Below are positions 55,751 to 64,000 of a stretch of DNA of 64,000 bases, in pieces. The translations under genes and the position numbers were made by a program. The stretch comes from Candidatus Sumerlaeales bacterium (GTDB lineage: Bacteria; Sumerlaeota; Sumerlaeia; Sumerlaeales; Sumerlaeaceae), in the NCBI GenBank assembly GCA_038243585.1, contig JBBSQY010000006.1, forward strand, positions 12,840 to 76,839. The letters run 5' to 3'. The notes beneath the pieces are model-generated. The model was not told the DNA's origin. It was given only the letters and a program-made list of their open reading frames with translations, and did no database searches. The stretch's first letter is position 1; each line of letters begins with the position of its first letter.

Positions 55751-56038
55751 TTACCAGTAGTAGTAACTTCCGTACTGTCCACCGCCGTTATAGCTATAGC
55801 CCAGGCCATAATACGATCCGTCTCCATGGTACGTTTCAGGAAAATAGCTGCTATTGTATGACCAATAGGGGTCATAGCGAACCCCTGTCGAATAATGGTA
55901 CGGATAACCATAATAATGGCGTACCCCGTAGGCTTGGCGAAGCTGTTCATACTGAGGGCTGAAGTATTGAGCGGACGCGGCCCCGGCAAAGCTGGACAGA
56001 ACTAACAGTACGACGATGCGGCAAGAAGTTGTGGCCAT
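55751..56038 (-). CDS. Small secreted Tyr/Gly-rich low-complexity protein
   Basis: Signal peptide MATTSCRIVVLLVLSSFAGAASA/Q, then a ~72-aa mature region with about 21 Tyr (YYGYPYHY, GSYYGLGYSYNGGGQYGSYYYW). I chose it over the overlapping same-strand ORF 55723-55989, which lacks a signal peptide. Confidence 0.5.
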   Translation of the reverse strand: MATTSCRIVVLLVLSSFAGAASAQYFSPQYEQLRQAYGVRHYYGYPYHYSTGVRYDPYWSYNSSYFPETYHGDGSYYGLGYSYNGGGQYGSYYYW

Positions 56039-56082: not shown

Positions 56083-57639
56083 CTACTTCTGGCTACGCAT
56101 TCTTCGGGCCAGATTACTCACAAACGGATTGTATTGGTCATTAGCGGCCTGCGTTTCTTGACTTGCGACCGCCTGACCTGCCACCCGAACCGAAGTGCCA
56201 ATAAGAGGTCGTGCCTCAGCGTTAACTTCAGTTTCCAGAAGCGATTCTCCAAGAAAGCTAACAGCGGTAGTTGGTGATAGTCCTTTCGCGTTTTGAACAA
56301 GAACCAGTTCAGCCCTTGATATTTCTTCAATCGCCTTAAGGCTGACGGTGGCCAGTTTGCCAGATCCGCGGACTTGCGAATTGGAAGCGGAGACTTCATA
56401 AACAATAATACCTTTAGTATTATCCGCGAAATTAAAGCGGTAATAGTCAAAAGTAAAATTGTTCCTCGCCATCGCATCGCGGATATTTATACCGCGGGTT
56501 ACAACGTTTCCTGCATCGCTGTCCACAACCTGCAGAATAGTAGGATCAAACTGCAAATAAAGGCGGACGCGATCAAGGCGTTTTTCACCCGGGTTTTTTA
56601 GAAAAATATCCACATCAAATGATTCTCCAGCTCGTACCGAAGTCGAAGACGGACGCAGATCAAAAGTCACATCAAGTCCAGGCCGATCGTCGCCAGCCGA
56701 CGCAGTCGGAGACCCGATCAGTACGCCATCATCCAGTCGAGTTAAAGTAGGTTTAGTTCGCGGTCCTATGACTTGGACCATAGATTTTATTACCCCATCA
56801 GATGACCCGGGCATGGTGCCCAGCAAGTTGACGTCGTTTAAAAAAAGGCCTGTGGTATGACGATTTTCGCCAAATTCATAAGAAATTACTGCTCCGTCCG
56901 TCTGCTCCAACGCTTCCCAAACTATCGAGATCAGTTCCTTTTGAGCGAATTGTCGCGGCTCTTTCAGGGCCGCACGGACATAAATTGTTCCTTCATCCGG
57001 GTTGAACTCATAATCAATTTTGTTTTTAACATAAGGGTCGAGGGCTGAGTGATCCAACGCCAGGGGATTCAGAATATGACGAGGGTACTTAATAAGCAGA
57101 GAAACCTCATCGATTTCCCCCTCTTTTGTTTCCGCATGAATTTCCGTATTAAATCGCTCCCCAACCGATACAATGCTGTCCATTGGATGGAACAACAAGA
57201 TCGTCCGTGATTCGCTGCGGGCAGATTGTGGCGACTGAGCCGCGGGCGTTGCATCTGCCGCCTGAATGGGTGGAGTCATACGCGCGTTTTGGACAGGCCC
57301 TGTCGGAAGAGGCTGGCCGGGAACTCCCGCGACCGGAGCTGCTCCTTGTGGGTTGACGGCACCCGGCGCTCCGGGTGGCGCGCCGGGAACTACAGCCGCG
57401 GGTGCGCCTGGAGCCGCCGGTGGCTCGGTTCCCTGTTTCGCCTGCAACGCCTTCTGCTGCTCGTCCCGTCTGGCTTTACTCTCTTCGAGTATTTTTTTAA
57501 TTCGTTCCTGATGTTCCCTAATCCGTTCTTGCCGTGTTTGCTCACCACCAGGTTGTTGCGCCATAGCGCTAATCGGCTGAAAAACAAACACTAAGCTGGC
57601 AAGCATACCCCATATCACTCGCGTCGAGAACATAATCAT
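56083..57639 (-). CDS. Secreted protein: charged coiled-coil + Pro/Ala-rich linker + two cohesin-like beta domains (tentative)
   Basis: The start is set at ATG 57639 (MIMFSTRVIWGMLASLVFVFQPISAMAQ signal peptide). The longer ORF from 57807 would overlap the upstream methyltransferase gene. The domain assignment is by pattern only. Confidence 0.5.
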   Translation of the reverse strand: MIMFSTRVIWGMLASLVFVFQPISAMAQQPGGEQTRQERIREHQERIKKILEESKARRDEQQKALQAKQGTEPPAAPGAPAAVVPGAPPGAPGAVNPQGAAPVAGVPGQPLPTGPVQNARMTPPIQAADATPAAQSPQSARSESRTILLFHPMDSIVSVGERFNTEIHAETKEGEIDEVSLLIKYPRHILNPLALDHSALDPYVKNKIDYEFNPDEGTIYVRAALKEPRQFAQKELISIVWEALEQTDGAVISYEFGENRHTTGLFLNDVNLLGTMPGSSDGVIKSMVQVIGPRTKPTLTRLDDGVLIGSPTASAGDDRPGLDVTFDLRPSSTSVRAGESFDVDIFLKNPGEKRLDRVRLYLQFDPTILQVVDSDAGNVVTRGINIRDAMARNNFTFDYYRFNFADNTKGIIVYEVSASNSQVRGSGKLATVSLKAIEEISRAELVLVQNAKGLSPTTAVSFLGESLLETEVNAEARPLIGTSVRVAGQAVASQETQAANDQYNPFVSNLARRMRSQK

Positions 57640-57694
57640 TGTCCTTCCCCATCCAATACAATGCCCAATCCTGATATTAATAATATGACTGATC

Positions 57695-58294
57695 TCAACG
57701 ATTGTTTGCCAGTAAGCGATCAAAAATAATCGCGGCGGCTGCTCTGACGGATAAATGGTTAAAATCACCAGTCCCAGTAATTGGCTCCAGCACGAAATCC
57801 GCCTCAAGCATCATCTCGGGGTGAAGACCCCACCCTGTGCCAAAAAGGAGCACTATTGGCCCACCTTCATCGGCCATTATTTCTCTTAATTGTTTAAAAG
57901 TGACAGTATTGGCGTATGTGCGGGCCGATGTCACAATAAACTGGGGCTCCTGATCGCATTCGGCCAATACGTGGTCACTCATTTTCCCAACGTCGGTAAA
58001 ACATTGCGTGATACTGAGGGCATCTTTGCGATTAGAATTATACTTGGATCCCCAACCGCTTTCCCAATGCTCCAGAATTTTGGATACGAGCCAATGTTGG
58101 GCCTCCACCGGCGTAATAAGAAAATATCCATCCAGACCGTAGGTGCGGGCACTCCTGCTTATATCGTGAATGTCCAGGTTGGTAACCGATGTCGATACCA
58201 GCATGCCCTGTTTGTCAATCACAGGGTAATGAAGAAGTGCTGCGTAAATTTTGCGTGGCATGGGAGGAATTGAAATCATGCATTTTTGCACCAT
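57695..58294 (-). CDS. Predicted SAM-dependent RNA methyltransferase (SPOUT-like, Methyltrn_RNA_4-type)
   Basis: The block LLHYPVIDKQGMLVSTSVTNLDIHDISRSARTYGLDGYFLITP and the C-terminal LLFGTGWGL match my recollection of this family. Alternative ATG at 58279. Confidence 0.5.
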   Translation of the reverse strand: MVQKCMISIPPMPRKIYAALLHYPVIDKQGMLVSTSVTNLDIHDISRSARTYGLDGYFLITPVEAQHWLVSKILEHWESGWGSKYNSNRKDALSITQCFTDVGKMSDHVLAECDQEPQFIVTSARTYANTVTFKQLREIMADEGGPIVLLFGTGWGLHPEMMLEADFVLEPITGTGDFNHLSVRAAAAIIFDRLLANNR

Positions 58295-58310: not shown

Positions 58311-58471
58311 TTTTATAAGAGTTCTTAAAACGTGTGATTTTCTTCTGGACTCTTGGAAAACCCATCGTTAAATTCCCATGCTGAGTAACCGTTCAGGGTG
58401 GATAGAAACTGCATAACCTGTTATCTCTGATTCGGTGCAGGAAATATATGAGAGGTTGTTCTTAGCTAGGT

Positions 58472-60262
58472 ATGGGTTATAACCCGGAAAACCCTCTGAT
58501 TGTACAATCAGATATGTCGGTTCTATTGGAAACAATGGGCCCACATTACGAAGATGCACGCGCATTCATCAACCAGTTTGCGGAGTTGACGAAAAGTCCC
58601 GAGTATCTGCACACCTATACGATCACGCCGCTCTCCATTTGGAATGCCGCGTCTGCGGGAATTACATTGGAGGTGATTTCGGCTGGACTTGAAAAGTTCG
58701 CGAAGTACGATTTGCCGGGCAATGTTTTTACCGAGATTCGTGAGCTGCTGGGCCGTTTCGGCAGCATTCAGCTTTTAAAAAATTCAGAAACCGGGCAGCT
58801 CTACCTTAAATGCCGAGATTTGCCGGTAGCCGAAGAAGTCCTTGCCGCGCCCGCCGTCCGGGAGCATTTGGAGAAGCGTGTATCGGACTTGGAAATTCTG
58901 GTTAGTCCCGATGCCCGCGGCCGTCTTAAACATGCCCTTATTAAGCAGGGCTATCCAGTTGAAGACCTTGCTGGGTTTATTGAAGGAGATGCTCTGGAAG
59001 TTGATTTCAGAGATGTTACACTTAAAGGTCGAAAGCTTAAGATTCGGGGCTATCAACAGGAAGCCGCAGAGATGTTCTATTGCGGCGGGCGCGCCACCGG
59101 CGGCAGCGGTGTGTTAGTGCTGCCATGCGGCGCAGGGAAAACCGTCATTGGCATTGCCGCAATGACCCTGGTGAAGCAAAAAACCCTCATCCTGACAACA
59201 AACGTAACAGCCCTCCGCCAATGGATGAACGAAATCATAGACAAAACGACAATCGAAGCTAAGAACGTCGGGGAATATAGTGGCGAAAATAAAAACATCC
59301 GGGACGTCACAGTCTCTACCTATCAGATTCTAACTTATAGAGACCGTAAAACAGATCGTTTTCCTCACATGGACCTTTTTGGAGCGCACAACTGGGGCCT
59401 AATTGTCTATGACGAAGTGCATATGTTGCCTGCTCCCGTATTTCGTGCAGTCGCGGATATACAGGCGAAAAGACGACTTGGCCTAACTGCCACCTTGGTG
59501 CGCGAAGATGGCAAAGAAGACGAAGTTTTTTCCCTGATCGGCCCCAAGCGCTACGACAAGCCCTGGAAAGAACTAGAGAGCCAGGGCTGGATTGCGGAAG
59601 CTATATGTACGGAAATTCGGGTCCCCATGGATAACGATTTGAAATTGCAATACGCGGTTGCGGACCTTCGGGCAAAATATCGCCTAAGCATGGAAAACCC
59701 TGCAAAACTTACCGTAGTCCAGCAACTCCTGGATCGGCACAAAGGTGATCGCGTGCTTGTAATTGGGCAATATCTGGGGCAATTGGCCGCGATACAGGAA
59801 ATGATTAAAGCGCCAATAATCACAGGTCAGACACCGAACAATGAGCGGGACGAGATCTACGGCAAGTTTAAAACCGGAGAAATCCAAGTTCTGATTGTCT
59901 CAAAAGTAGCCAATTTCGCCATTGATTTGCCCGATGCTAACGTAGCGATCCAGGTATCCGGCACATATCGTTCAAGGCAGGAAGAGACACAGCGGCTGGG
60001 ACGGGTGCTACGCCCAAAAGCCGATGGCAGCAGCGCATGGTTCTATTCTGTGGTAACAAAAGACAGCAAAGATCAGGAGTGTGCGAAAAAACGATCCATG
60101 TTTCTCACAGAGCAGGGGTATAGGTACTGTATTCAGGTACTTAACGATGAAGACATTAACATCACTCCTGTTATTGACGTTGATCTTGATTCAAAGGAAG
60201 CTCTGCATCGAGCAGCTGAAACAACAACTGAGTCGACTCTAGTAACAATAACCGAAACGTAA
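58472..60262 (+). CDS. xpb: XPB/Ssl2/ERCC3-type SF2 DNA helicase/translocase
   Basis: N-terminal XPB-type domain (PLIVQSDMSVLLE...), Walker A LPCGAGKT, DEVH box, and motif III followed by the RED motif (TATLVREDGKE). Helicase C lobe with QRLGRVLR. Confidence 0.9.
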   Translation: MGYNPENPLIVQSDMSVLLETMGPHYEDARAFINQFAELTKSPEYLHTYTITPLSIWNAASAGITLEVISAGLEKFAKYDLPGNVFTEIRELLGRFGSIQLLKNSETGQLYLKCRDLPVAEEVLAAPAVREHLEKRVSDLEILVSPDARGRLKHALIKQGYPVEDLAGFIEGDALEVDFRDVTLKGRKLKIRGYQQEAAEMFYCGGRATGGSGVLVLPCGAGKTVIGIAAMTLVKQKTLILTTNVTALRQWMNEIIDKTTIEAKNVGEYSGENKNIRDVTVSTYQILTYRDRKTDRFPHMDLFGAHNWGLIVYDEVHMLPAPVFRAVADIQAKRRLGLTATLVREDGKEDEVFSLIGPKRYDKPWKELESQGWIAEAICTEIRVPMDNDLKLQYAVADLRAKYRLSMENPAKLTVVQQLLDRHKGDRVLVIGQYLGQLAAIQEMIKAPIITGQTPNNERDEIYGKFKTGEIQVLIVSKVANFAIDLPDANVAIQVSGTYRSRQEETQRLGRVLRPKADGSSAWFYSVVTKDSKDQECAKKRSMFLTEQGYRYCIQVLNDEDINITPVIDVDLDSKEALHRAAETTTESTLVTITET

Positions 60263-60268
60263 AGACGA

Positions 60269-63052
60269 ATGCAGACAGACAGATACGCCCTTTCCGAATC
60301 CTTAAAGCTTCGCGCCTTGCTTCGCCAGCTGCCAGACGAACAACTATCCCGTATAAGCAGAAACTGGGGATTCCGGGAAAGTGACAAAAGTGGTAGCGCG
60401 GAAAAGATTTCCGGGGAGCATTTGGCCGATTTCCTGTATCCCCGCATGAACTCCGAAACTTACTTTCAGCAGATATGGGAACGGTTAAGTGAAGAAGAGC
60501 GAGACGCACTTAAGTTTTTAGGGATTCATGGCGGAGTATTGGCCAGAGAAGAACTGAACCAGCGCGTATTTAAAGGGGCGGTGCGAACTTTTCGCAAAGC
60601 TTCAGACAGTCTCATAGACAAAGGCCTCGTTTATGAAGCTACCGAGCTTCCAGGGATGAGTCGCTCTAGCGAACAGTGGTTTTTTGTTCCAGAAGTTTTT
60701 CTTACATTTTTACAGCTGCCAATACATTGTCAGGGGTTTTTAGGCAATTTGCTGCGTCTGCTAGGGACGGAGGAACTGTCAGCACTTGCGAAGCGGGTGT
60801 TGAAGCTGGAAGATCACCAGTTGCCCTCGCCATTAGAGCTACGGTACAACGTCAGAAAGTTTCTGATAGAGCCAGATAATTTAAGAAACACTGTTGAAGA
60901 GCTGCCCGAAACGGAAAGAGAAGTTTTCGAAGCGTTGCTCGGCCGAAAAGGCCAATGTCTTTACCGGGAGCTGCTTGACGCGACAGGCGCTAGAAAAGTG
61001 GACCATAGCAAAGCCGAGTTCATCAACCAGTTGGCTCAAACAACGGGACTAGTGTTTACTGTCTCTGAAGGCCATAACAAATACATGAACTCGCTAATGG
61101 TTCCGCGGGATCTATATTACGTTATTACCCGACGCTATCAGCCAGACACTCGGTCCCTCCAACGCATCGAATCCATGGCAGGCATCCGGCGGGAGGCTCC
61201 GAAGCTGCCACCCTCGGACAACTCCGCAGACATACTCCGAGACATGGCTGTTTTTGCTGCTACAATGGATATGTTTCAGCCAAAAAAACTTACAACCGGC
61301 GGTATCAACAAGGCTGATTTAAAAAAGATGGCCACGATCTTTCCTTTAAGTAAGCAGGCGAGATATTCTACTTTTTTGTCCACATATCTAATCAACTCTG
61401 ATAGCTTTGTAGATATTCAAGGGGCCTGGCGGGCATCGGAAAAGCTGCCGGCTCAACTTAGTAGTCCCGAGCAGACGTTCCTTTTTCTTTTTCAGTGGTG
61501 GTTGAAAACAACCACTTGGAATGAGTTTTTTATCGATGGGGTTGCGCCAGCAGGTGATCGGCCTCCGCAGCTATGGACAAACGTTGTTGAACTGCGCCAG
61601 GTAATTCTGAGCGCTTTGCATCAAGTTCAAAAAGACAGATGGGTCAGCTACTCCAATTTTTGGGAAACAGTTGTCCCTCTTCTGGATTCGCGACTTCCCA
61701 AAGGCAGCGGCGGCGGTGGCTACGGTGGAATTCTCTCCGTAAAAGACGCGGTCGGCGTTATTATACGGGAATCCCTGTTTTTTCTGGGAGTCACAGTCAT
61801 CGCCAATACGAACCCTGACGATGATGCGGCTGCCAAATCACGCTCCGTTGTAAAGGCAAAGGGTAAAGAGCCGGTAAACGAGCCGCCCGCGGATTTTCAA
61901 TTCAAGCTTTCCCCTATGGGTCGCAAGCTTGCTGGGTCTGATGCAATTAATCTCACTTTCAATATCGAAAGTGAAGACAATCCCGTAGTCGGAAGTTTTC
62001 AGCAAGGAGCACAATGGATCATCGTACAACCAAACCTCGAAATTGTGGCGCCGCGTGATCTGGGTTTAGACTCGGTTTTCCAACTCGCGCGTTTATGTAA
62101 GGTAAAGAACATCGATGTAATGACCACCCTAGAACTGAGTCGGGAAAGCTTGCGACCTGTTCTCGATCGCGGCGCTGATACTGAAAGCATTTTGCAATTT
62201 CTGACCGGCTTGAGCAGAATGGAAATGCCTCCAGGCATCGCACAATTAATAGAAGATTGCAGCAACAAGCACGGAGAAATCAGACTCGGCAGCAGCAGTG
62301 GGTATATTATTGCGGAAAACAATACCGTTCTGGAATCGATATGGCGACATCCCAAGCTTACGCCGTTTATTAAAGAAAGATATGGCGACAATGTCCTGTT
62401 GCTGGCAAGCGAAACAGACCTCAACAAAGTGGCAAAGGAGCTCCGCAGCCATGGTCACAGTCCGCAAATGGAAACCGGCGCAGTTCACGCAAACCATGAC
62501 AATCGCTTCCATCTGGCTCTAACGGAAATAGAAATGCAGGACGTCATAGCTGCCGTTCGCTTTCTATCCTACGTGGAAAAAGTTCTTGAGGCAGATCTTA
62601 CAGACGGGCGTGCCGCAACCATGGCCCACCGGCTACAGCCTGATTCAACCGGCTTTCTAGTAAGTGGGACTGGAGTTGAAACTCGGTCCCGTCAGTTATT
62701 CCGGCGTTTCGAAGCGGCATTTAACAAACACGACGAGGACATTGTCGAAAAATATAAAACTCAGGTTTCTAAACTCGTATCCCGATCTACAACATCCCGG
62801 GGGCCTAGTAAATATCAGTATAAGGGATCAAATCCCGCGGTTGATAAGGAAGACATTGAGCAGCTTATCGTTTTTGCGCAAGAGTATGAGCTGGAAGTTG
62901 AACTGCTCTATCTGAAGCAAAGCGAACAGGAAACTCGCGTAGTAGTCTTGCCCCGGGGTGTCGAAGGGGAGCGCATCTACGCCCATAACAGCGTGACCGA
63001 CACTGATGCGGTTTACTCCCTTAACAGGATTTTGCGCGCCAGGCTCCTGTAA
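60269..63052 (+). CDS. XPB-associated 927-aa protein: repeated winged-helix-like modules + XPB-N-terminal-like domain + small C-terminal beta-rich domain; function unknown
   Basis: It starts 6 nt after the xpb stop. Internal repeat: LSEEERDALKFLGIHGGVLAREEL versus LPETEREVFEALLGRKGQCLYRELL. Residues ~583-732 align by eye with XPB residues ~8-163. I recognised no catalytic motif. Confidence 0.7.
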   Translation: MQTDRYALSESLKLRALLRQLPDEQLSRISRNWGFRESDKSGSAEKISGEHLADFLYPRMNSETYFQQIWERLSEEERDALKFLGIHGGVLAREELNQRVFKGAVRTFRKASDSLIDKGLVYEATELPGMSRSSEQWFFVPEVFLTFLQLPIHCQGFLGNLLRLLGTEELSALAKRVLKLEDHQLPSPLELRYNVRKFLIEPDNLRNTVEELPETEREVFEALLGRKGQCLYRELLDATGARKVDHSKAEFINQLAQTTGLVFTVSEGHNKYMNSLMVPRDLYYVITRRYQPDTRSLQRIESMAGIRREAPKLPPSDNSADILRDMAVFAATMDMFQPKKLTTGGINKADLKKMATIFPLSKQARYSTFLSTYLINSDSFVDIQGAWRASEKLPAQLSSPEQTFLFLFQWWLKTTTWNEFFIDGVAPAGDRPPQLWTNVVELRQVILSALHQVQKDRWVSYSNFWETVVPLLDSRLPKGSGGGGYGGILSVKDAVGVIIRESLFFLGVTVIANTNPDDDAAAKSRSVVKAKGKEPVNEPPADFQFKLSPMGRKLAGSDAINLTFNIESEDNPVVGSFQQGAQWIIVQPNLEIVAPRDLGLDSVFQLARLCKVKNIDVMTTLELSRESLRPVLDRGADTESILQFLTGLSRMEMPPGIAQLIEDCSNKHGEIRLGSSSGYIIAENNTVLESIWRHPKLTPFIKERYGDNVLLLASETDLNKVAKELRSHGHSPQMETGAVHANHDNRFHLALTEIEMQDVIAAVRFLSYVEKVLEADLTDGRAATMAHRLQPDSTGFLVSGTGVETRSRQLFRRFEAAFNKHDEDIVEKYKTQVSKLVSRSTTSRGPSKYQYKGSNPAVDKEDIEQLIVFAQEYELEVELLYLKQSEQETRVVVLPRGVEGERIYAHNSVTDTDAVYSLNRILRARLL

Positions 63053-63066
63053 GGAGGAGGTGACAA

Positions 63067-64000
63067 GTGAAGTCGTATGGCAATAAATTCGTCGAACTGC
63101 TGGACCGTACCTCGCTTATAAAGACAGTCTCTAAAGGGTCGGGTGTTCTAGTAGGTGTATCCGGCGGAGCAGATTCTGTCGCATTGCTTATGGGAATGTG
63201 TGCGATCAAGCCCGCCATCGGTATCACCCTGACCGCAGTCCATATAAACCACGGGCTACGATCGGAGGCAGCAGCAGAAGAATTCTTTGTTCAGTCCCTT
63301 TGCGATCGGTTGTGTGTGGACTGCCGCATTGTGAAACTGACCGGAAAAGAAAAGCCCGGAAAGTGCAGTCCCGAACAATTCTGGAGGCAGTCCCGCTATT
63401 CTGAATTTGAGGAAATTCTTGCCGATACAGAAAGCGATTTTCTAGCCCTTGGCCATACCATCGATGACCTTGCCGAAACATTTTTATATCACCTGACTAG
63501 AGGAACAGGAGTTGATGGTCTTGTCTTCCATTTTTTTAAAATGGCAGGCGCTCTTCCAATCATTCGACCTCTCTGGCAAACCAGCAGGAGTCGCATAGAG
63601 ACAGCCTTAACCGGCGCCGGTGAGCAATGGACCACAGACACTTCAAATCAAGACGTGAGATATAGTCGGAATCTCATCAGGCACAATGTTATCTCAGAAT
63701 TAAAAAAGATAAATCCCTCAGTCGTGGATGCAATTGCACGATTATCAGCGAATTTGCACGATTCGATTTCGAACCTCCCAGATCAGGACAGTCCCGATGA
63801 TTCCCTCACTGAAAATCCTCGATACTTCTCAGCCTTAAATGACGATAAAGTTTTGAAACTAACCGGCACTGCTTCAAACGGCGCTAATATCTCAGCACTA
63901 ATTCGCAATTTCGTATTTGCCGCGGCTACAACAATAATGGACAGTCGCCAGACGGCCCAGGCCACAAGAATTATCGCCTCTCGGGGAACAGGTTTAGTTG
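63067..64000 (+). CDS. tilS: tRNA(Ile)-lysidine synthase, N-terminal part (3' end lies outside the window)
   Basis: A GTG at 63067 follows AGGAGGAGG, and the frame is open to the window end. PP-loop GVSGGADS, HINHGLR, GHTIDDLAET and D.SN.D..Y.RN.IR blocks. It is absent from the ORF track because there is no stop in the window. Confidence 0.88.
   Translation, partial: MKSYGNKFVELLDRTSLIKTVSKGSGVLVGVSGGADSVALLMGMCAIKPAIGITLTAVHINHGLRSEAAAEEFFVQSLCDRLCVDCRIVKLTGKEKPGKCSPEQFWRQSRYSEFEEILADTESDFLALGHTIDDLAETFLYHLTRGTGVDGLVFHFFKMAGALPIIRPLWQTSRSRIETALTGAGEQWTTDTSNQDVRYSRNLIRHNVISELKKINPSVVDAIARLSANLHDSISNLPDQDSPDDSLTENPRYFSALNDDKVLKLTGTASNGANISALIRNFVFAAATTIMDSRQTAQATRIIASRGTGLV

Follow-up and report, generated by a model that had tools for sequence, protein, structure and literature searches.

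An XPB helicase gene paired with a gene for a p52-like partner protein with a probable WYL domain in a Candidatus Sumerlaeales bacterium

The 64,000-nucleotide (nt) stretch of contig JBBSQY010000006.1 from a Candidatus Sumerlaeales bacterium (hereafter the window, with its first letter as position 1) contains an operon at 58472-63052 in which an XPB-type helicase gene is followed by a gene for a non-catalytic protein of 927 amino acids (aa). The operon has the makeup of a bacterial XPB-p52-type module with a probable WYL domain, and it appears to be unstudied. We think it rather probable that the two genes encode a two-subunit DNA translocase, with XPB as motor and its partner as a p52-like, non-catalytic adaptor or regulator. 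Two elements of this reading are solid, namely the homology of a clutch-like domain of the partner to both the XPB N-terminal domain and the clutch of the TFIIH subunit p52 (Tfb2 in yeast), and the overall domain order of the partner. The gene pair is also conserved across bacterial phyla. The partner is p52-like rather than Bax1-like; its binding to XPB is unproven, as is its orthology to p52.

58472..60262, plus strand: XPB/ERCC3-type superfamily 2 (SF2) helicase-translocase gene, 596 aa (NCBIfam, Pfam and motif positions)
58496..58879, plus strand: XPB N-terminal domain, PF13625, aa 9-136 (Pfam, E 8e-29)
60269..63052, plus strand: partner gene, 927 aa, non-catalytic, p52-like architecture (open reading frame (ORF), full-length homologues, structure model, Foldseek)
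60269..61807, plus strand: predicted winged-helix (WH) array at the N-terminus, about four modules interrupted by helical inserts, aa 1-513 (AlphaFold2 secondary structure)
61808..61888, plus strand: low-confidence variable linker, aa 514-540 (predicted local distance difference test score (pLDDT) 29-45; length and sequence vary in the homologue alignment)
62018..62518, plus strand: clutch-like alpha/beta domain, aa 584-750 (PF13625, profile matches, Foldseek)
62525..62785, plus strand: predicted helical stalk between clutch and WYL domain, aa 753-839, no family assigned (model helices aa 753-773, 781-788 and 802-839)
62846..63052, plus strand: probable diverged WYL domain, aa 860-927, stop codon 63050-63052 included (orthologues, profile, fold)

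The XPB gene and its junction with the partner gene

Judged by its profile matches and motifs, the gene at 58472-60262 is a bona fide XPB. It scores 824.3 bits against NF045503, the NCBIfam XPB equivalog (cutoff 610), and 344.8 bits against TIGR00603, the rad25 subfamily model (cutoff 328.7). Its Pfam domains are PF13625 at the N-terminus, ResIII, ERCC3_RAD25_C and Helicase_C. The Walker A motif LPCGAGKT is located at aa 217, DEVH at aa 314 and TATLVRED at aa 339-346, with RED at aa 344. The full XPB-type helicase recognized in the original prediction is therefore upheld by motifs, equivalog score and N-terminal domain alike. The NCBIfam model covers aa 8-554; past its end lies a C-terminal tail of ~40 aa (window 60134-60259) that is rich in Thr, Glu and Asp (…ETTTESTLVTITET).

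The TAA stop codon of XPB is separated from the ATG of the partner gene by the 6-nt spacer AGACGA, and both genes lie in one reading frame. The TAA of the partner gene is followed by GGAGGAGGTGACAA (14 nt) and then by the GTG start codon of a TilS-like PP-loop ORF; the sequence directly 3' of the partner stop reads GGAGGAGG, a short spacer and the GTG. These coordinates and junctions match the two ORFs and the 6-nt and 14-nt spacings noted earlier. No terminator-like site was found on the plus strand at either gene junction. Such plus-strand sites are present only within the partner ORF (61765) and the tilS-like ORF (63162), and the counts of promoter-like and terminator-like sites are at the level of shuffled sequence.

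Domain anatomy of the partner protein

The sole significant Pfam match of the partner is PF13625 at aa 584-701 (E 2.6e-18), and positions 33-164 of the NCBIfam XPB model align to partner aa 612-740. A single-chain AlphaFold2 model made with 19 homologues (pLDDT 77.5) predicts about four helix-helix-helix-wing modules over aa 49-547, with helical segments between them, and, at aa 860-927, a module of one helix and five beta strands. Most of the architecture described in the original prediction is thus recovered by the model and by PF13625 (winged-helix modules, a copy of the XPB N-terminal domain and a beta-rich C-terminus); the linker role given to the motif GSGGGGYGG is not. This motif occupies aa 479-487 (61703-61729), in a loop within the fourth winged-helix module ~100 aa upstream of the XPB-like domain. 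It is strictly kept among homologues at ~66% identity or more, conserved only above ~45%, and degraded or replaced in distant Sumerlaeota orthologues. We rejected it as an interdomain linker in favour of aa 514-540 and regard it as a lineage-specific loop.

The partner matches no enzyme family in Pfam or NCBIfam and no PADLOC component, and searches of PDB sequences with the protein or with family profiles as query gave no significant enzyme match. These results bear out the earlier statement that the protein has no recognizable catalytic motif. A Bax1-type nuclease was considered as an alternative identity for the partner and rejected for want of sequence or fold support. No Bax1 or nuclease domain was found in Pfam, NCBIfam, the PDB sequence and profile searches or the top 50 PDB fold matches listed, in agreement with the earlier suggestion that the partner is not of Bax1 type.

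Relationship to the TFIIH subunit p52/Tfb2

The clutch-like domain was compared with its eukaryotic counterparts by sequence profile and by fold; the p52, Tfb2 and XPB segments used for hidden Markov model (HMM) and pairwise tests were taken from PDB search alignments. The family profile matches human p52 residues 303-373 with E 2e-6 and yeast Tfb2 residues 337-404 with E 3.5e-6. Over human p52 residues 302-447 the match reaches E 2.7e-7, on par with human XPB (E 1.2e-7). This longer match extends into the C-terminal domain of p52 at residue 447, and on the partner side it corresponds to the clutch region (profile positions 23-160 of 186). In the profile search, p52 and Tfb2 rank above XPB when the N-terminal half of the clutch domain is considered. 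The partner clutch also has a T/S-R-x-S-L...G motif in common with Tfb2 ITRESIRRALTNG.

HMMs were built from 51 paired bacterial XPB N-terminal-domain and partner-clutch sequences. The partner-clutch HMM scores Tfb2 at 27 bits and p52 at 22, against 10 and 12 bits with the bacterial XPB N-terminal-domain HMM. Human XPB residues 100-191 show the opposite preference, with 57 bits on the XPB N-terminal-domain HMM and 35 on the partner-clutch HMM. These preferences hold with Sumerlaeota-only and with non-Sumerlaeota training sets.

When the full-length model was searched against the PDB with Foldseek, p52/Tfb2 chains took all 12 top places (E 7e-8 to 1e-5); their alignments span ~590 columns against targets of 421-452 residues. 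XPB N-terminal domains rank below p52 (E ~4e-5; root-mean-square deviation 3.9 A over 164 columns), and chain 7d58_O of RNA polymerase III also falls behind it (E 2e-3). We take 7d58_O and its yeast equivalents to be RPC3/C82.

The C-terminal domain as a probable diverged WYL domain

The sequences of relatives and the predicted fold indicate that the C-terminal module of the partner is probably a diverged WYL domain. The WYL family of Pfam (PF13280) matches 5 of 19 full-length co-linear orthologues (best E 1.7e-5) and, among wider family members aligned over their whole length, 11 of 35. The family profile matches the WYL region of PafBC (E 5.4e-5) and, more weakly, BrxR, 7tb5 (titled P. aeruginosa CapW) and 7qfz (titled BrxR), the last two both deposited as 'WYL domain-containing protein'. 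Foldseek likewise matches the partner to DriD, BrxR, PafBC and CapW at probability 1.0 (E 4e-3 to 1e-2). Within the partner, EVELLYLK...RVVVLPRGVEGERIYAHN...YSLNRILRARLL fits what we take to be the WYL pattern, with IYA replacing WYL. A p8-binding C-terminal domain of the Tfb2_C type was rejected for this module; orthologue Pfam matches, profile and fold all point to WYL instead.

The presence of WYL together with winged-helix modules raises the question of whether the partner is mainly a WYL-type transcription factor of a damage or stress regulon, in which the clutch recruits XPB to promoters or senses the state of XPB and the partner is no constitutive subunit of XPB. The matches to PafBC, DriD, BrxR and CapW by Foldseek and profile lend themselves to this explanation, as do MarR-type regulators among weak fold matches of the N-terminal part and the function of eukaryotic XPB in promoter opening. 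However, the WYL domain is dispensable in many XPB-linked members of the family, in which HMM coverage stops near profile position 650-700, whereas the PF13625 clutch is the sole domain found in all 35 members sampled. In addition, a 927-aa protein with four winged-helix modules is unlike the 300-aa HTH-WYL-WCX regulators (HTH, helix-turn-helix), and the best full-length fold matches are to p52 rather than to regulators. We consider a transcription factor of this kind unlikely.

Conservation of the gene pair

Co-occurrence of the two genes beyond this genome, which the original prediction called for, was found both within Sumerlaeota and across phyla. In species-representative genomes, 46 full-length or partial close homologues of the partner were recovered, all in metagenome-assembled genomes (MAGs) of Sumerlaeota (BRC1) or in unclassified MAGs of that type. 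Of the 44 Sumerlaeota loci that were informative by tblastn, ~40 have XPB on the same strand as the partner and no more than ~400 nt upstream, and one has it 3 kb away. Across Sumerlaeota loci, partner identity drops to ~29% and XPB identity ranges over 54-84%, falling to ~54-58%. The predicted gaps between the two genes have a median of 66 nt, with several 4-nt overlaps. The tilS-like and SPOUT methyltransferase genes that flank the pair in the window are common to the three or four closest relatives only. The outer flanks therefore change while the pair stays, which implies that selection keeps the pair together and not the neighbourhood.

Outside Sumerlaeota, the two genes are also paired in Actinomycetota, KSB1, Chloroflexota, Bacillota and Bacteroidota; adjacency and co-orientation extend over at least six phyla with changing flanking genes. 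Adjacent pairs were found, for example, in Cytophagia, Chloroflexota, Sporolactobacillus and another Bacillota genome, and a 1.35-Mb Arthrobacter replicon has the order partner then XPB. One of the WYL-bearing partners that overlap the XPB stop codon by 4 nt comes from KSB1, and NCBI also gives the name KSB1 to a close relative, P0161. In M. tuberculosis, the XPB gene Rv0861c presumably has a neighbour of the partner type, Rv0862c. An XPB alignment was also used as query in a metagenome scan that gave 80 bacterial XPB loci. A partner-family ORF lies within 6 kb of XPB in 45 of the 80, usually directly downstream and sometimes directly upstream; ~13 adequately flanked loci are without a partner and the remaining loci are too short to judge, which places a partner near XPB in about three quarters of informative loci. 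Roughly 70 adjacent pairs were collected in all. In an exhaustive profile search, the number of cluster representatives was 138 at E<=1e-30 and rose to 1093 at E<=1e-10; at looser thresholds, XPB itself is probably counted too, by way of its N-terminal domain.

The frequency of overlapping stop and start codons, the persistence of co-oriented adjacency in at least six phyla despite changing flanks, and the role of the shared domain in recruiting XPB in TFIIH all speak against a partner that acts independently of XPB. In that alternative the protein would be, for instance, a chromosome-organizing or DNA-binding scaffold, and adjacency would record no more than common regulation or descent through a duplication of the XPB N-terminal domain. 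Some family members are indeed encoded away from XPB, and the kleisin-interacting tandem-WH protein of MukBEF (9gm7_C) is among the weak fold matches. We judge this explanation improbable.

An anti-phage or anti-plasmid defence module, in which a helicase motor works with a WYL-bearing sensor, is a further alternative and a very improbable one. Partial PADLOC matches of XPB to PbeA and other helicase models (all generic) would fit such a module, as would the frequent occurrence of WYL domains in regulators of defence, among them BrxR and CapW. The partner, however, matches 0 PADLOC families, and no nuclease or other effector is present. Furthermore, the pair recurs throughout the Sumerlaeota loci that were sampled, within the range of XPB identity given above, and is placed among housekeeping genes in the window. 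A tblastn search with the partner gave 0 matches in 50,697 phage records and 1 in 72,556 plasmid records (the Arthrobacter replicon).

Other arrangements of XPB genes and PF13625 proteins were also seen. Metagenomic XPB loci without a partner have unrelated neighbours. In one of them (L063:7683-10820), XPB is directly followed on the same strand by a 1045-aa AddB-like PD-(D/E)XK nuclease, which could be an alternative helicase-nuclease pairing. The unlinked partner-family genes at L053:5001-7514 (837 aa) and L055:2008-4233 (741 aa) have no XPB within 5 kb, and their products have no Pfam WYL match; a PadR regulator and a sigma-70 factor are encoded near one of the two. Six XPB loci contain two further tightly coupled downstream ORFs (L099:5995-12424, L071:5983-12165, L129:502-6910, L084:3109-9390, L120:1732-8162 and L064:1171-7612). 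Pfam was run on the middle extra protein (730-790 aa) of L099, L071, L129 and L084 and placed a PF13625 domain at the C-terminus of each; near the N-terminus, two of the four have a SWIM zinc finger and two a SAP match. The last extra protein (754-790 aa) was scanned in L099 and L129, and PF13625 occurs twice in each. These additional PF13625 proteins suggest that PF13625 serves as a module of XPB-centred assembly.

Strength of the p52-like reading

Several observations weigh against the p52-like, two-subunit reading. Aligned pair by pair, human p52 shows no greater similarity to partner clutches than to bacterial XPB N-terminal domains, and yeast Tfb2 alone prefers partner clutches (p 5e-5); the pairwise result for p52 implies that the HMM asymmetry may partly reflect tight conservation of the XPB HMM. 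Pfam Tfb2 (PF03849) does not match the window partner. In relatives, the model matches 6 of 19 and 17 of 35 members, all below the gathering cutoff of 34.5 (best 21.9 bits), and the best Tfb2 score of an operon partner is 25.0 bits against the same cutoff; these sub-threshold matches cover mostly model positions 327-356 and, in a few cases, 229-355. When the N-terminal 560 aa of the partner were modelled separately (pLDDT 78.6), Foldseek gave no PDB match at E<=1e-3. The best chain was 7d58_O (human RNA polymerase III, E 3.9e-3), a weak match that is probably due to the general geometry of tandem winged helices; p52 chains followed at E 0.05-0.5, and the weak matches also included MarR-type regulators and 9gm7_C. 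In the predicted structures, the winged-helix array alone is not specifically p52-like, and the weakness of these N-terminal matches leaves its homology to p52 unproven. The window partner has no direct Pfam WYL match, so that its WYL assignment is drawn from orthologues and predicted fold. Lastly, the two genes do not always occur together. About one in four informative metagenomic XPB loci is without a nearby partner, three Sumerlaeota partners (L007, L030 and L042) have no XPB within reach, and two partner-family members of unassigned origin (P0090 and P0113), neither with a Pfam WYL match, have no XPB within 5 kb.

The earlier claim of a p52-type regulator is therefore sustained in its clutch homology and full-length fold matches; it is not sustained by the Tfb2 threshold, by homology of the winged-helix array or by a p8-binding domain. 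The operon also has no p8 gene, since no ORF lies between XPB, the partner and the tilS-like gene; p34, p44, p62 and XPD were not searched for.

Proposed mechanism

In TFIIH, XPB is brought in by the pseudo-symmetric dimer that its N-terminal domain makes with the homologous clutch of p52; XPB RecA2 is contacted jointly by these two domains and by the p52 C-terminal domain with p8 (PMC6422496). The bacterial partner keeps the clutch and the XPB of its operon keeps the N-terminal domain, which makes heterodimeric docking the most economical reading of the pair. Under this proposal, the partner clutch, as a paralogue of the XPB N-terminal domain, would dock on that domain and pair with it as a pseudo-symmetric heterodimer in the manner of p52. 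The tandem winged-helix array (with SAP-like elements in relatives) may bind DNA or other factors and position the motor, and would serve as a DNA-binding or scaffold element.

The WYL domain would take the place of the p52 C-terminal domain and p8 module. PafBC uses single-stranded DNA (ssDNA) as its damage signal, and DriD has been crystallized with ssDNA (PDB title). By analogy with these proteins, the partner WYL domain probably senses ssDNA or another nucleic-acid signal, with ssDNA as the most likely ligand. Such sensing could gate or target the motor, and would then couple the recruitment or activity of XPB to DNA damage or stalled DNA transactions, which would be consistent with a role in repair.

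Genomic context

The genes that flank the pair are less conserved than the pair itself.

58343..58376, plus strand: putative promoter TGGACT-17 nt-TAAATT in the gap between the SPOUT methyltransferase and XPB genes (block conserved in L001-L003)
63067..64000, plus strand: TilS-like PP-loop gene with GTG start (PF01171, E 5e-43)

The TilS-like gene lies 3' of the pair in the three closest relatives only; it is a mere neighbour, outside the conserved module. Upstream, a divergent SPOUT methyltransferase gene is separated from XPB by a 174-nt gap. This gap includes a conserved block at 58337-58400 (ATTTTCTTCTGGACT ... GTTAAATTCCCATGCTGAGTAACCG) that is kept in the three closest relatives, L001-L003. 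The -35/-10-like pair at 58343..58376 within the block is a possible promoter by its sequence; it agrees with the consensus at only 8 of 12 positions, and the consensus scan did not pick it up. No LexA-type palindrome or operator was evident by eye 5' of XPB. Further upstream on the minus strand, a 95-aa ORF (55751-56038) has a signal-peptide-like N-terminus and a remainder that is extremely rich in Tyr and Gly (YYGYPYHY...GSYYYW). A 574-aa minus-strand ORF (56083-57807) combines a low-complexity segment rich in Pro and Ala with a cohesin domain (PF00963, E 1e-6), and GC content is locally higher (0.52) around it.

Novelty, origin and significance

Bacterial XPB has been studied only as an isolated, inefficient helicase. 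A 2012 paper on M. tuberculosis XPB states that p52 homologues had not been found in bacteria, and a March 2026 review describes bacterial XPB function as elusive. Our literature search, whose coverage is without most subscription journals, found no description of a bacterial p52-like XPB partner, and within that coverage it agrees with the earlier suggestion of a largely undescribed bacterial XPB holoenzyme. Database labels for the partner family are limited to 'helicase-associated' or 'helicase C-terminal domain-containing protein'.

A conserved operon partner with the XPB-recruiting domain of p52 points to a natural holoenzyme that is open to reconstitution, for instance with mycobacterial or Arthrobacter proteins, and the WYL domain suggests a testable regulatory input to XPB. 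The partner also bears on the origin of the XPB-p52 core of TFIIH. Tentatively, the bacterial operon could be the sister or source of the eukaryotic XPB-p52 module, with a pairing that predates eukaryotes and a p52 that lost WYL and gained p8 binding; we hold this to be possible but doubtful. It fits the report that A. fulgidus XPB appears to be without the N-terminal domain common to bacterial and eukaryotic XPB (PMC3353954). If this origin is true, bacterial XPB would gain a defined ssDNA-sensing holoenzyme.

Comparison with known systems

The partner resembles chain O of RNA polymerase III in its tandem winged-helix array; the polymerase chain, however, is without a clutch domain and has no link with XPB. 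The WYL regulators PafBC, DriD, BrxR and CapW have winged-helix DNA-binding modules at the N-terminus and a C-terminal WYL-type fold preceded by a helical element, as is predicted for the partner. They differ in having one HTH per WYL unit, no clutch domain and roughly 270-330 aa per chain (664 aa in fused PafBC) rather than 927 aa, and the WYL motif of the partner is diverged, with its IYA variant escaping direct Pfam detection. In archaea, XPB is likewise encoded beside a dedicated partner. This partner, Bax1, is a nuclease that modulates XPB and binds its HD2/thumb region (PMC13024598), whereas the bacterial partner is without a nuclease domain. The XPB-p52-p8 assembly of TFIIH has an XPB motor with a PF13625 N-terminal domain, as in the window. 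Its p52 subunit is non-catalytic, as the partner is, and its domains come in the same order: tandem winged helices, a clutch homologous to the XPB N-terminal domain and, last, a small domain at the C-terminus. The bacterial partner differs from p52 in being twice as long and in ending with a probable WYL domain instead of a p8-binding Tfb2_C fold, and the bacterial system differs from TFIIH in that XPB and its partner are encoded in one operon.

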